The notes beneath the pieces were generated by a model. The model searched no databases. It saw nothing but the letters and a program-made list of their open reading frames with translations, and had not been told where the DNA came from. Below are positions 19,009-20,641 of a stretch of 29,289 nt of DNA, one piece after another; position 1 is the stretch's first letter, and each line of letters begins with the position of its first letter. The translations under genes were made by a program, and so were the position numbers. The stretch covers positions 1 through 29,289 of the forward strand of contig JBEICW010000001.1 of assembly GCA_040383785.1 (NCBI GenBank), written 5' to 3'. The stretch is from Ignavibacteria bacterium (GTDB lineage Bacteria; Bacteroidota; Ignavibacteria; Kapaibacteriales; UBA2268).

Positions 19009-19944
19009 ATGCCTAAAAAACCTTCTACATATAATCGGATATTAAAAGAGTTTACCAAGATAAACAATAAACTACCCGAAGAAAGAAAGTTATCAATACA
19101 ACAGCGAAGAGAATTAATAAAAACAAGGATTAAGCCGCTTTATATTGATGTTCCAGCATATAAAATAAAAGTAAAAAAATTAAGGGCGGAAATTTATAAA
19201 GAGCTTGAATTTATACCGCCAAAAGAAATTTGCGACCTTAATTATATTGATACTTCTGAATATGCGTTTGTAGAGTGGTTTTCATTAGACGAAACAATTA
19301 GAGAGCTTGTTCCAGATTGTATTTATGTAAAAGTTACTGCTGGTTCATACGGTGAAACAAAAATTTTCAATACCAGAAATTATCAATACGGTAAAAAGGG
19401 TGTAAGAAATATTGTTGAAGCAATAAGAATAGATGCAGAAAATTCATCTGGTAAATATGTATTTTCTGGGTATCAAAAATTACGTCCACGAAAAAAGAAT
19501 GACGGCACTCCCGAAAATTATTATTTAGACTTTGTATTGTACATAATCACTACAAAAAAAGGTAAAATAGTTACAGAAGAACCACAGGGTGATACAGAAA
19601 CCGTAAAGTTTGACTTGCCTAAAACAAGAGAGGTAAAAAGTAAAAAAGCTAAAATAAGAAGTGTAATTGAGAGAAAAATAAAGCTTCTGAAACAAAAGAG
19701 AGACAGCAAAAGAAGGGCAAAGAAAACACTTCAGAAAAACATAGAAAAATATTCAAGTGCGGTCAAAAAAGTTACCAAATCGAAAAAACCTACTATTGAT
19801 TCAAAAGCAGCAGCAAGAAAGCAATTCTTGGCTACTACTAAATTACTTGAAAAGTATTACAAAGAGGGTAAATTAACTAAATACCAATACGATAAATCAC
19901 TTGAGAAAATACTAAAAGATTTTACAGCCTACAATGAAAAATAA
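19009..19944 (+). CDS. Very basic 311-aa protein (nucleic-acid binding; terminal-protein/partner candidate)
   Basis: Lys/Arg-rich N- and C-terminal helices around a central alpha/beta region; 11-nt overlap with the PolB-like gene. Confidence 0.75.
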   Translation: MPKKPSTYNRILKEFTKINNKLPEERKLSIQQRRELIKTRIKPLYIDVPAYKIKVKKLRAEIYKELEFIPPKEICDLNYIDTSEYAFVEWFSLDETIRELVPDCIYVKVTAGSYGETKIFNTRNYQYGKKGVRNIVEAIRIDAENSSGKYVFSGYQKLRPRKKNDGTPENYYLDFVLYIITTKKGKIVTEEPQGDTETVKFDLPKTREVKSKKAKIRSVIERKIKLLKQKRDSKRRAKKTLQKNIEKYSSAVKKVTKSKKPTIDSKAAARKQFLATTKLLEKYYKEGKLTKYQYDKSLEKILKDFTAYNEK

Positions 19945-20641
19945 GAGCATACGTTATGTTGCTAAAAGTTCAGAAGATTTTATTCTGAAAAGAATGATTA
20001 GTGAAAAAGCAAACGGCTACATCAAAAAGGGAACATTTACAGATGAAATTGTCTGGGGAAATTATGCCTATATTTTTCCGTGTATGGACAAAAAGAAGCA
20101 AACGGCATTTAAAAAAGGAATGTTTTTATTTGGTATGGTACGCAGAGATGCAAAAATATATCTTAATAACTATACTATAAGTTTACCAAAAAAATATCCG
20201 CAGATTGAATATAGAACAGATTTAACTGAAATTTTAGGTAAAATAACCGCAACCGACTTGAATCACGCATATTGGAGAATAGCCTATAATTTAGGCATAA
20301 TATCAGAGCAAACTTACATTAAGGGATTACCAGACGAATACAAATCTGTTAGATTGGCGGCATTAAGCACTTTGGGTGCAACCAAAAAATATCAAAAGAT
20401 AAAAAAGGGTGAATTTACAGATGAATATATGGTCATCAAAGGAGATGAAACATTACAAAGTGTTTACAAATTAATAAGACTAACCTGTTATAAATATATG
20501 AGTCAAGTAAAAAGATTGCTCGGTAAAGATTTTCTATGCTACAAAACGGATTGTATTTACTATATGGATAACAAAGAAAACAGAAAGATTGTAAAAGATT
20601 TTTTTGTAGATAAAGATTTATTAATGAAACAATTAGTATAA
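19934..20641 (+). CDS. Minimal, divergent family B DNA polymerase-like protein (palm and fingers only)
   Basis: Motif A-like TDLNHAYW (D108, Y113), motif B-like RLAALSTLG (140-148), motif C-like CYKTDCIY (D206), in the correct order. Confidence 0.65.
   Translation: MKNKSIRYVAKSSEDFILKRMISEKANGYIKKGTFTDEIVWGNYAYIFPCMDKKKQTAFKKGMFLFGMVRRDAKIYLNNYTISLPKKYPQIEYRTDLTEILGKITATDLNHAYWRIAYNLGIISEQTYIKGLPDEYKSVRLAALSTLGATKKYQKIKKGEFTDEYMVIKGDETLQSVYKLIRLTCYKYMSQVKRLLGKDFLCYKTDCIYYMDNKENRKIVKDFFVDKDLLMKQLV

Follow-up and report, generated by a model that had tools for sequence, protein, structure and literature searches.

This work deals with a pair of overlapping genes in a 29,289-bp stretch of DNA (the window), which is an entire contig (JBEICW010000001.1) and one of the 671 contigs of a metagenome bin assigned to an Ignavibacteria bacterium (GCA_040383785.1). 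The window has a G+C content of 30% and carries genes of phage type, among them those for a RecT protein, a PD-(D/E)XK exonuclease, a ligase-like protein, a DUF932 protein, a glycosyltransferase and members of other phage families. The pair consists of a gene for a 235-aa protein that is predicted to carry a polymerase palm closest to that of the family B DNA polymerases (PolB) and, directly upstream, a gene for a highly basic protein of 311 aa, here called the partner. The features of the locus are the following:

18991..18998, + strand: TAAATTTG, a promoter-like box of the Bacteroidota -7 type, 10 nt before the ATG of the partner gene
19009..19944, + strand: partner gene, 311 aa, highly basic product, from the list of open reading frames (ORFs)
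19934..19944, + strand: overlap of 11 nt between the stop of the partner gene and the start of the PolB-like gene
19934..20641, + strand: minimal PolB-like gene, 235 aa, from the ORF list and an AlphaFold2 (AF2) model
20255..20257, + strand: codon of D108, motif-A-like Asp, invariant, at the C-terminal end of the predicted palm strand beta1
20342..20344, + strand: codon of K137, candidate motif-B Lys, invariant, in the predicted fingers-like helix 134-145
20549..20551, + strand: codon of D206, motif-C-like Asp, invariant, at the turn of the predicted beta2/beta3 hairpin, local sequence Y-K-T-D-C

An earlier note, made from the letters of this stretch, had described two overlapping ORFs with a basic protein as the first product, and both are present (311 and 235 aa, 11-nt overlap, isoelectric point (pI) of the partner 9.85). 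The overlap suggests translational coupling, and overlapping or abutting junctions between the two genes are also found in the relatives L005, L004, L014 and L016. The same note had given the partner gene a promoter of its own: the sequence TAAATTTG is indeed there, whereas its role as a promoter is plausible because TAnnTTTG recurs 5-20 nt upstream of at least six ORF starts of the + strand (4217, 11733, 12282, 14143, 15640, 18991). The total number of TAnnTTTG sites in the window is at chance level (54 observed and 55.9 expected). The gene pair is neither an assembly artefact nor a broken long gene, since positions 15635-20996 of the window, including both genes, are covered by a Logan contig of 5361 nt that comes from another study's run (X2), and none of the indels listed for that contig (21 more exist beyond these) falls within either gene.

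Neither protein of the pair matches Pfam, PHROG or PDB sequences. For the 235-aa protein, 633 homologues were found among candidates of 129-412 aa, the best 120 listed being 216-259 aa long, and an exhaustive profile search of 1.84 billion representatives gave 801 clusters at 50% identity (E <= 0.001), of which the 150 listed have at most 373 aa and mostly 230-300 aa. No homologue of 481-2000 aa was found in a size-restricted search, a negative that counts as weak evidence. Pfam (PF00136 and PF03175 included, E <= 0.1) and the PHROGs of known function have no match to any of 61 family members, the family profile finds no PDB sequence at E <= 10, and tblastn with four members detected nothing in 50,697 GenBank phage records at E <= 1e-3 to 1e-5. 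The environment labels of hundreds of metagenomic contigs with the gene are mostly freshwater, drinking water or sediment. Given the number of clusters, the lack of long homologues, the lack of matches in phage records and the single marginal match in species genomes, the family is, as far as sequence searches tell, a large, stand-alone and viral one that is known only from metagenomes. The case in which the gene would be a broken piece of a longer polymerase gene, considered by the earlier note, is contradicted by the hundreds of clusters, the missing longer form and the independent contig. A prophage origin was also considered and rejected, as a scan of 185,579 prokaryotic species genomes produced a single marginal match. 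Related to this, the window's contig was binned with a 3.6-Mb genome despite its phage-like gene content; this binning probably does not reflect integration, since the family is essentially absent from those species genomes and the gene content is that of a phage. One IMG/VR copy of the PolB-like gene (G019:C1:16910-17602) has an in-frame TAA stop, which may be a sequencing error or mark a pseudogene.

Conservation was analysed in an alignment of 61 diverse members, with 22-58% identity to the window's protein. Its sole invariant internal residues are D108, K137 and D206, and the same three are again invariant in two sub-alignments of divergent branches (A6 and A7). Y113, W114, A117, I123, R182 and M189 are conserved in at least 90% of the 61 members. 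The positions that the earlier note had given for D108, Y113, W114, R140 and D206 are correct, and the two Asp residues whose conservation it proposed to check do not vary among the 61 homologues. The motif B that it had placed at R140 does not hold, as R140 is conserved in less than 90% of them; the invariant K137 is the better candidate for the motif-B Lys.

The AF2 model of the 235-aa protein, built from an alignment of 22 sequences, has a mean predicted local distance difference test score (pLDDT) of 89.7 and a predicted template modelling score (pTM) of 0.81. It begins with a beta-alpha-beta-beta-beta module (residues 2-50), resembling modules of the same type in glyoxalase-like proteins (Z 5-5.8), which is followed by two helices (53-79). 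The C-terminal two thirds form a predicted palm with the RRM-like order beta1-alpha-beta2-beta3-alpha-beta4. Strand beta1 (104-108) ends with D108 and is followed by a fingers-like insert of about 60 residues (109-171, helices and one hairpin); then come the palm helix (172-199), the two hairpin strands (200-204 and 207-211) with D206 at the turn, a further helix (214-226) and beta4 (232-234). In palm polymerases the metal ligands lie at the end of beta1 and in the beta2/beta3 hairpin, and the fingers are inserted after the first strand (PMC7824862). D108 and D206 would therefore occupy the metal-ligand positions in the model.

When the model was aligned to 48,161 representative PDB chains, the PolB of Pyrobaculum came first (Z 9.0, 149 residues, root-mean-square deviation 3.8), followed by phi29 polymerase (Z 7.3, 229 residues), Pol alpha, the polymerase of herpes simplex virus (HSV), the PolB-derived HSV UL8 and the RB69 polymerase. 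Reverse transcriptases, PolA enzymes and nucleotide cyclases (GGDEF and class III among them) stand at Z 4.7-5.5 in this alignment. After re-alignment of the top 1000 Foldseek chains the first 26 are all of PolB type (Z 5.9-8.4), with reverse transcriptases at 5.5 or below. In the ESM Atlas the model matches a cluster of 656-aa viral proteins (TM score 0.71 over 228 residues), 81% of whose members have PF03175, a cluster of 712-aa phage proteins (TM score 0.64, 212 residues), about 30% of whose members have helicase/ATPase domains of SF1 type, and three clusters of viral hypothetical proteins of 280-290 aa. In BFVD the matches comprise, among others, phage DNA polymerases and a 290-aa protein named 'divergent family B DNA polymerase' (E 3e-4). 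The likeness to PolB claimed in the earlier note thus stands in part: the model does contain a palm and PolB enzymes are the closest matches in these four structure searches, as the note had proposed to check, whereas a link between sequence profiles is missing. Because no such link was found, the term 'PolB-like' is used here in view of the predicted structure and the motif positions, and the palm of the 235-aa protein is described as a predicted one that is closest to family B.

Several features of PolB enzymes are kept and more are lost. Motif A is represented by D108 at the end of beta1 and by Y113, the aromatic steric-gate position at +5; the Ser-Leu and Pro-Ser positions of DxxSLYPS are lost, the local sequence being D-L-N-H-A-Y-W. 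Motif C (YxDTDS) is reduced to a Y-K-T-D-C hairpin that keeps the second Asp, D206, and motif B (Kx3NSxYG) to the invariant K137, with its Asn, Ser, Tyr and Gly positions unconserved. A 3'-5' exonuclease domain (ExoI-III) is absent, with about 100 residues before motif A and no exonuclease family detected. D108 and D206 are 98 residues apart, compared with about 209 in phi29, which leaves no room for TPR1 or TPR2, and the protein has no C-terminal thumb because it stops 29 residues past D206. The losses of the exonuclease and the thumb described in the earlier note are confirmed, and the fingers comprise only about 60 residues. The typical features of reverse transcriptases are lacking too, as the hairpin reads Y-K-T-D with no YxDD and there is no RVT match in Pfam, and no GGDEF-type motif is found at the hairpin. 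The first Asp of motif C is also missing from piPolB and from the archaeal B2 enzymes, and piPolB polymerises efficiently (PMC7544198); a motif C with the second Asp only is thus compatible with activity. Since the profiles, the exonuclease, the thumb and the canonical motifs B and C all fail, the 235-aa protein should be filed as a new minimal family with a predicted PolB-like palm and not as a member of PolB.

The partner has a pI of 9.85 and contains 24% Lys and Arg. Basic stretches at both termini (residues 1-66 and 201-311, pI about 10.3) flank an acidic middle (67-200, pI 5.3). It has 307 homologues of about 304 aa and no Pfam domain. The AF2 model (pLDDT 85.2) consists of N-terminal helices, an alpha/beta domain (about 88-192) and a basic three-helix bundle (207-311), the latter resembling ribosomal protein bS20, a generic basic bundle that binds RNA (Z 11.5, a value to be expected among helical bundles). 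For the rest of the partner no convincing fold was found with Foldseek on PDB or in the ESM Atlas searched by shape or features, the middle being faintly NTF2-like. A PDB profile match to yeast Gcf1p (E 0.002, in a Lys-rich region) was judged compositional and rejected. Y125 and Y172 are conserved within the wider clade of the window. In the 105-kb ENA relative L001 (8955-10011) the partner is called as two genes (266 and 80 aa); this points either to a frameshift or to a gene that is really split where the basic C-terminal bundle begins. Co-folding of the partner with the 235-aa protein, another check proposed by the earlier note, gave a median ipSAE of 0.56 (0.66, 0.56 and 0.28 in the three runs), the best of three controls reaching 0.00. 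The mark set for this score is reached by 58 of 80 solved complexes and by two of 110 mismatched pairs; at 0.60 or under, only seven of the 80 solved complexes passed and both mismatches did so too. The pLDDT of the partner was at least 77 and the contact agreement between runs at least 0%, and the result counts as weak support that is not used as evidence here.

The linkage of the two genes extends across lineages, as the earlier note had proposed to verify. A basic gene, homologous or similar in architecture, lies directly upstream of the PolB-like gene in every lineage opened except one marine group. It is recognised by 40% identity in L003 (E 3e-41), by weak similarity in L004 and L005, by profile matches in G001, G002 and G004-G009, and by position and architecture in G003. 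The exception is formed by the TARA contigs L006 and L007, where a PAP2-like gene is found upstream. The same bin contains a second copy of the pair on a small contig (G000:C287, L009: 199-1353 and 1375-2139), which encodes a very basic partner-like protein of 384 aa and then a 254-aa homologue of the window's protein (32% identity). The C-terminal motif L-G-Y-T-K-K-E-I-N-K-L-L-G of this second partner is shared with the partner of G005.

The position of the pair was analysed in the contigs of relatives, nine of them taken from IMG/VR by a profile scan and sixteen more (at least 20 kb) by a back-translated motif-C pattern, these sixteen all being verified carriers of the gene. Between the gene and a contig end there are 1.1-11.4 kb in 22 contigs with lengths of 20-146 kb (Fisher p 6e-4), the largest distance being 10.7 kb among the 15 contigs of at least 50 kb, and the gene is oriented inward from the nearer end in 19 of the 22 (binomial p 9e-4). 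The partner and the PolB-like gene are the first two genes at the contig end in G002, G005 and L005. Both contig ends were compared in 15 relatives, physical termini not being readable from contigs, and five of them showed inverted terminal repeats, between 65 and at least 905 bp long. The repeat of G001 is perfect and 653 bp long. That of G003 has 127-133 bp, with a sequence of 78% identity at the end of the related contig G004, and that of G005 at least 65 bp. In G013 and G021 a repeat of at least 696 and at least 905 bp, respectively, lies at one end and a piece of 57 or 114 bp at the other, a pattern that is expected when a true terminal repeat is collapsed by an assembler. Besides, homologous G/T-rich terminal sequences occur at the ends of related contigs from different samples. 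The ends of G001, G010, G011, G012, G017, G020 and G021 (L021, L153, L155, L157, L164, L165 and L167) are G/T-rich with runs like TTTTGGGG; such ends in genomes of about 30% G+C are reminiscent of telomeric repeats. The inspection of genome ends suggested by the earlier note has therefore revealed inverted terminal repeats in relatives, whereas the window's contig shows no terminus.

Other replication genes were looked for in the genomes that carry the pair. No PolA, PolB or Pol III alpha (PF00476, PF00136, PF07733) was found in 15 relative contigs, four of which are estimated to be at least 90% complete, and no telomere resolvase was found in these 15 either. A search of G001-G005 for PF03175 found nothing, as did the control genomes, which makes it uninformative. 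In 11 contigs searched there is no primase of Prim-Pol (AEP) or Toprim_2 (DnaG) type, and DnaB appears in one of them. A Pfam scan of 58 ORFs of G002 (96% complete) gave methylases, an SNF2 helicase, a DEDD-type exonuclease and other families, with no replicase or primase among the 25 families listed. Terminase_6N, the sole terminase family searched, was not found in eight relatives.

Downstream of the pair the window continues with the following genes:

20667..20966, + strand: 99-aa Cys-containing protein, belongs to a syntenic block, homologue in the corresponding place in 16 of 17 relatives, no family match
20968..21261, + strand: 97-aa protein, belongs to the same block, homologue in the corresponding place in 14 of 17 relatives, no family match
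21458..22270, + strand: PD-(D/E)XK-type exonuclease (PF12705 at E 0.0039, below the curated cut-off; phrog_69 'exonuclease' at E 1.7e-4)
22458..23276, + strand: RecT-family single-strand annealing protein (PF03837 at E 2.6e-26, phrog_148 at E 3.3e-44)

The exonuclease gene is syntenic in most relatives, and together with the RecT gene it constitutes a recombination module adjoining the pair. Genes for a glycosyltransferase and for kinase/cytidylyltransferase-like proteins are also found nearby, and sulfotransferase/APS kinase genes in relatives. In the 73-kb ENA contig L005 a gene for an RNase_T-type (DEDD) 3'-5' exonuclease (1853-2563) directly follows the PolB-like gene, and G002 encodes an Rv2179c-like DEDD exonuclease elsewhere in its genome; proofreading may be supplied in trans in some lineages.

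Other features of the window deserve mention. A 78-nt direct repeat occurs at 2811-2888 and 15590-15667 (92% identical) and another one at 12234-12311 and 14095-14172 (81% identical). Each copy lies just upstream of an ORF start and holds a short palindrome and a TAnnTTTG box, and the repeats probably represent early promoter/operator units present in several copies. An ORF of 390 aa that matches no family (10501-11673, - strand) contains in-frame tandem repeats of 63 and 66 nt, at 10814-10965 and 11366-11585; one 66-nt unit (11410-11477) is absent from a contig of run X1, which indicates a variable copy number. A 372-aa protein with two PAS domains (4986-6104, - strand), whose gene has an internal duplication of 212 nt (5338 and 5701), has a homologue of 82% identity on the 111-kb relative contig L058, so that the gene belongs to the phage and not to a host. 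Two tandem paralogues of phrog_27463, of unknown function (26738-27550 and 27547-28374, - strand), adjoin the kinase/cytidylyltransferase-like genes (25893-26734) in a block that most relatives have kept on the opposite strand. The ATP-dependent ligase-like protein of 218 aa (14167-14823, + strand) has the nucleotidyltransferase domain only (PF01068, E 5.5e-10), and the contigs of several relatives stop within its gene or just upstream of it. The strand switch at about 11.7 kb, where contigs of relatives stop, was considered as a genome terminus and rejected, since contigs of two runs bridge it.

The order of the two genes recalls known systems. A gene for a non-enzymatic protein lies directly upstream of the polymerase gene, or overlaps it, in phi29, Karezi, Ayka, Cp-7, PRD1 and GIL16c, and the protein-primed PolBs (phi29 gp2/gp3, PRD1 P1/P8, Cp-7, GIL16c) have the same gene order as the pair. 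The likeness extends to the palm of phi29 polymerase, which resembles the 235-aa model at Z 7.3 over 229 residues, and to PRD1, whose terminal protein and polymerase genes are found at the genome end like the pair in G002, G005 and L005. However, the protein-primed PolBs have 550-750 aa with exonuclease, TPR1, TPR2 and thumb, all four of which the 235-aa protein lacks, their phage genomes have 15-27 kb compared with 60-146 kb in the carriers of the pair, and their terminal proteins are not basic throughout the C-terminus as the partner of the window is. The piPolB of pipolins has in common with the 235-aa protein the PolB fold and the loss of the first motif C Asp (PMC7544198), and it operates with no conventional primase, but it is of full size, has an exonuclease domain and clusters by sequence with the protein-primed PolBs, whereas the 235-aa family is undetected by PolB profiles. 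The inactivated PolB homologues (herpesvirus UL8, poxvirus F12 and archaeal PolB2) are highly diverged and recognisable mainly by structure, as is the case here; they are large and have lost the catalytic Asp, whereas the 235-aa family is minimal and keeps both metal positions and the Lys invariant. Reduced phage polymerases with no active exonuclease or normal thumb, divPolA1 and divPolA2, have also been found by structure prediction, divPolA2 with an unrelated N-terminal globular domain (Yutin et al. 2024, PMC11348598). These belong to family A and occur in isolated phages alongside a regular polymerase, whereas the 235-aa family is PolB-like and provides the only polymerase-like gene found in its carriers. 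A full-text literature search gave no description of a PolB-like protein of such size or of this gene pair, in agreement with the earlier note, which had not recognised it as a described system. In the Tap/Tpg system of Streptomyces, large linear replicons with inverted-repeat ends are copied by the host replisome inside and patched at the ends by short protein-primed synthesis, for which host enzymes provide the polymerase activity. This end patching is a conceptual model for the pair, with the difference that here the putative polymerase is encoded with the partner. Homology to Tap or Tpg did not come to light, no search aimed at it having been made.

The conserved palm residues, the lost parts for fidelity and processivity, the basic partner in the gene order of terminal-protein systems, the position at or near inverted-repeat ends in relatives and the lack of another polymerase, primase or resolvase in the contigs searched lead to the proposal of an end-directed module of short range. 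We tentatively favour, at somewhat less than even chances, an active minimal enzyme of PolB type that, with its partner, starts or completes DNA synthesis at the ends of linear genomes. The 235-aa protein would be a catalytically active and extremely reduced polymerase of family B fold, keeping the palm with D108 and D206 as metal ligands, a short fingers-like insert with K137 and a small N-terminal domain. Partner and enzyme would be produced together, probably by translational coupling. The partner would bind nucleic acid by means of its basic N-terminal region and its C-terminal helical bundle; on terminal DNA it would supply the DNA grip that the enzyme is missing or serve as a protein primer. 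At inverted-repeat ends, the minimal enzyme would incorporate the first nucleotides or close the terminal gap over a short distance, and bulk synthesis would fall to the host replisome together with the RecT/exonuclease recombination module next to the pair. In this scheme and its variants, catalysis by the 235-aa protein, its complex with the partner, the substrate and protein priming are inferred, as are template independence and the idea of completion in trans. A bolder form of it, in which the pair is a dedicated 'telomere' priming machine made of a 235-residue PolB-fold enzyme and a basic terminal protein for linear tailed-phage genomes of 60-150 kb with inverted-repeat ends, appears doubtful at present.

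A number of points weigh against synthesis at genome ends by a PolB-type enzyme. No sequence-profile similarity to any PolB was found with Pfam on the 61 members, with PDB profiles or with hhalign, which gave no signal (probability 0.05) against an alignment of eight protein-primed PolBs; the structural Z scores of 7-9 are only middling to moderately strong, and the adjacency of D108 and D206 in space is inferred from the topology of the model. Across the deepest alignment of the partner no Ser, Thr or Tyr is invariant. Its C-terminal domain is basic, while the priming domain of the phi29 terminal protein is acidic and DNA-mimicking. As for the ends, the 127-bp repeat of G003 has a common k-mer length of assemblers and may be an artefact, and fixed contig ends would also be expected of cos-type genomes. 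The window, a 29-kb fragment, has neither a terminal repeat nor a G-rich terminal motif or TTTTGGGG-like run, and its own clade (55-74% identity) has the module 17-31 kb away from the ends of contigs of 82-111 kb. The link with inverted-repeat ends is accordingly seen in the relatives and not in the window's phage.

Two other roles for an active enzyme have to be weighed, and each of them seems rather unlikely on the present data. The 235-aa protein might be a primase-like initiator that starts DNA de novo at origins or on lagging strands and hands over to the host Pol III, the partner being a DNA-binding loader with no part in protein priming and the genome ends being of no particular importance for the pair. 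The contigs searched, with neither a primase of DnaG or AEP type nor a polymerase found in them, agree with this; so does the 712-aa Atlas cluster (TM score 0.64), where the SF1-type helicase/ATPase domains of about 30% of the members recall the usual primase-helicase arrangement, and piPolB, which also lacks the first Asp of motif C, makes DNA de novo (PMC7544198). Such an initiator leaves unexplained, however, both the recurrent position at or near inverted-repeat ends and the gene order resembling that of terminal proteins, and the piPolBs are large, have an exonuclease domain and show no sequence similarity to the 235-aa protein in our searches. The enzyme might, on the other hand, be an active nucleotidyltransferase with no function in replication, which would fill recombination gaps, add untemplated tails or act in DNA modification or counter-defence with the partner as an accessory subunit binding nucleic acid. 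The loss of the exonuclease, the thumb and the motif B residues that check base pairs fits short-patch synthesis of low fidelity, and the neighbouring genes (the RecT/PD-(D/E)XK module, the ligase-like gene, the glycosyltransferase and kinase/cytidylyltransferase-like genes, with sulfotransferase/APS kinase in relatives) fit this role as well; diverged extra phage polymerases with proposed non-replicative roles are also known, as in divPolA2 (PMC11348598). But the phages with divPolA carry a regular polymerase too, and none was found in the contigs searched here, while three lineages have the pair as the outermost operon of the genome end, and the family is conserved, partner included, far more widely than typical accessory genes.

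The remaining explanations concern the nature of the protein itself and are both improbable. It could be a catalytically dead scaffold derived from PolB, like herpesvirus UL8 or poxvirus F12, that organises replication or packaging proteins: one of the best structural matches (Z 7.0-7.8) is HSV UL8, a PolB homologue that has become inactive, and the canonical motifs B and C are degenerate. Nevertheless, the sole invariant internal residues down to 22% identity are two Asp at metal positions and one Lys, and a dead scaffold has a very small probability because this pattern is the one expected of a conserved active site. Another branch of the palm enzymes, a reverse-transcriptase-like enzyme or a signalling nucleotide cyclase with which PolB would share only the fold, is equally hard to sustain. 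Foldseek on PDB alone does put reverse transcriptases first, with weak scores (TERT at E 1.6e-3, then DRT, retron and AbiK, TM score about 0.2), and the GGDEF and class III cyclase palms reach Z 4.7-5.0. Against this, the reverse transcriptases stay at that TM score and at Z 5.5 or below in shorter matches, compared with up to 9.0 for PolB, the hairpin has no YxDD or GGDEF-type motif, and the matches in the Atlas and BFVD are annotated as PolB.

If active, the 235-aa protein would be by far the smallest polymerase with an active site of family B type and would define the minimum of a PolB palm. To our knowledge, the smallest DNA polymerase known is Pol X of African swine fever virus, with 174 aa, an enzyme of the unrelated family X. 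For orthogonal replication systems, a compact polymerase that brings its own protein primer would be of practical interest too. Should the priming-machine form of the proposal be true, protein-primed replication would not be confined to the small genomes of phi29 and PRD1 type, and a family B active site would work at less than half the size of any known member. An abundant group of uncultured phages would replicate by a mechanism that is invisible to current annotation, since the family is missing from Pfam, from the PHROGs and, for the four tblastn queries, from 50,697 phage records. The link with inverted-repeat ends in the relatives, together with the lack of another polymerase or primase in the contigs searched, makes the question of how large linear phage genomes handle their ends directly testable.

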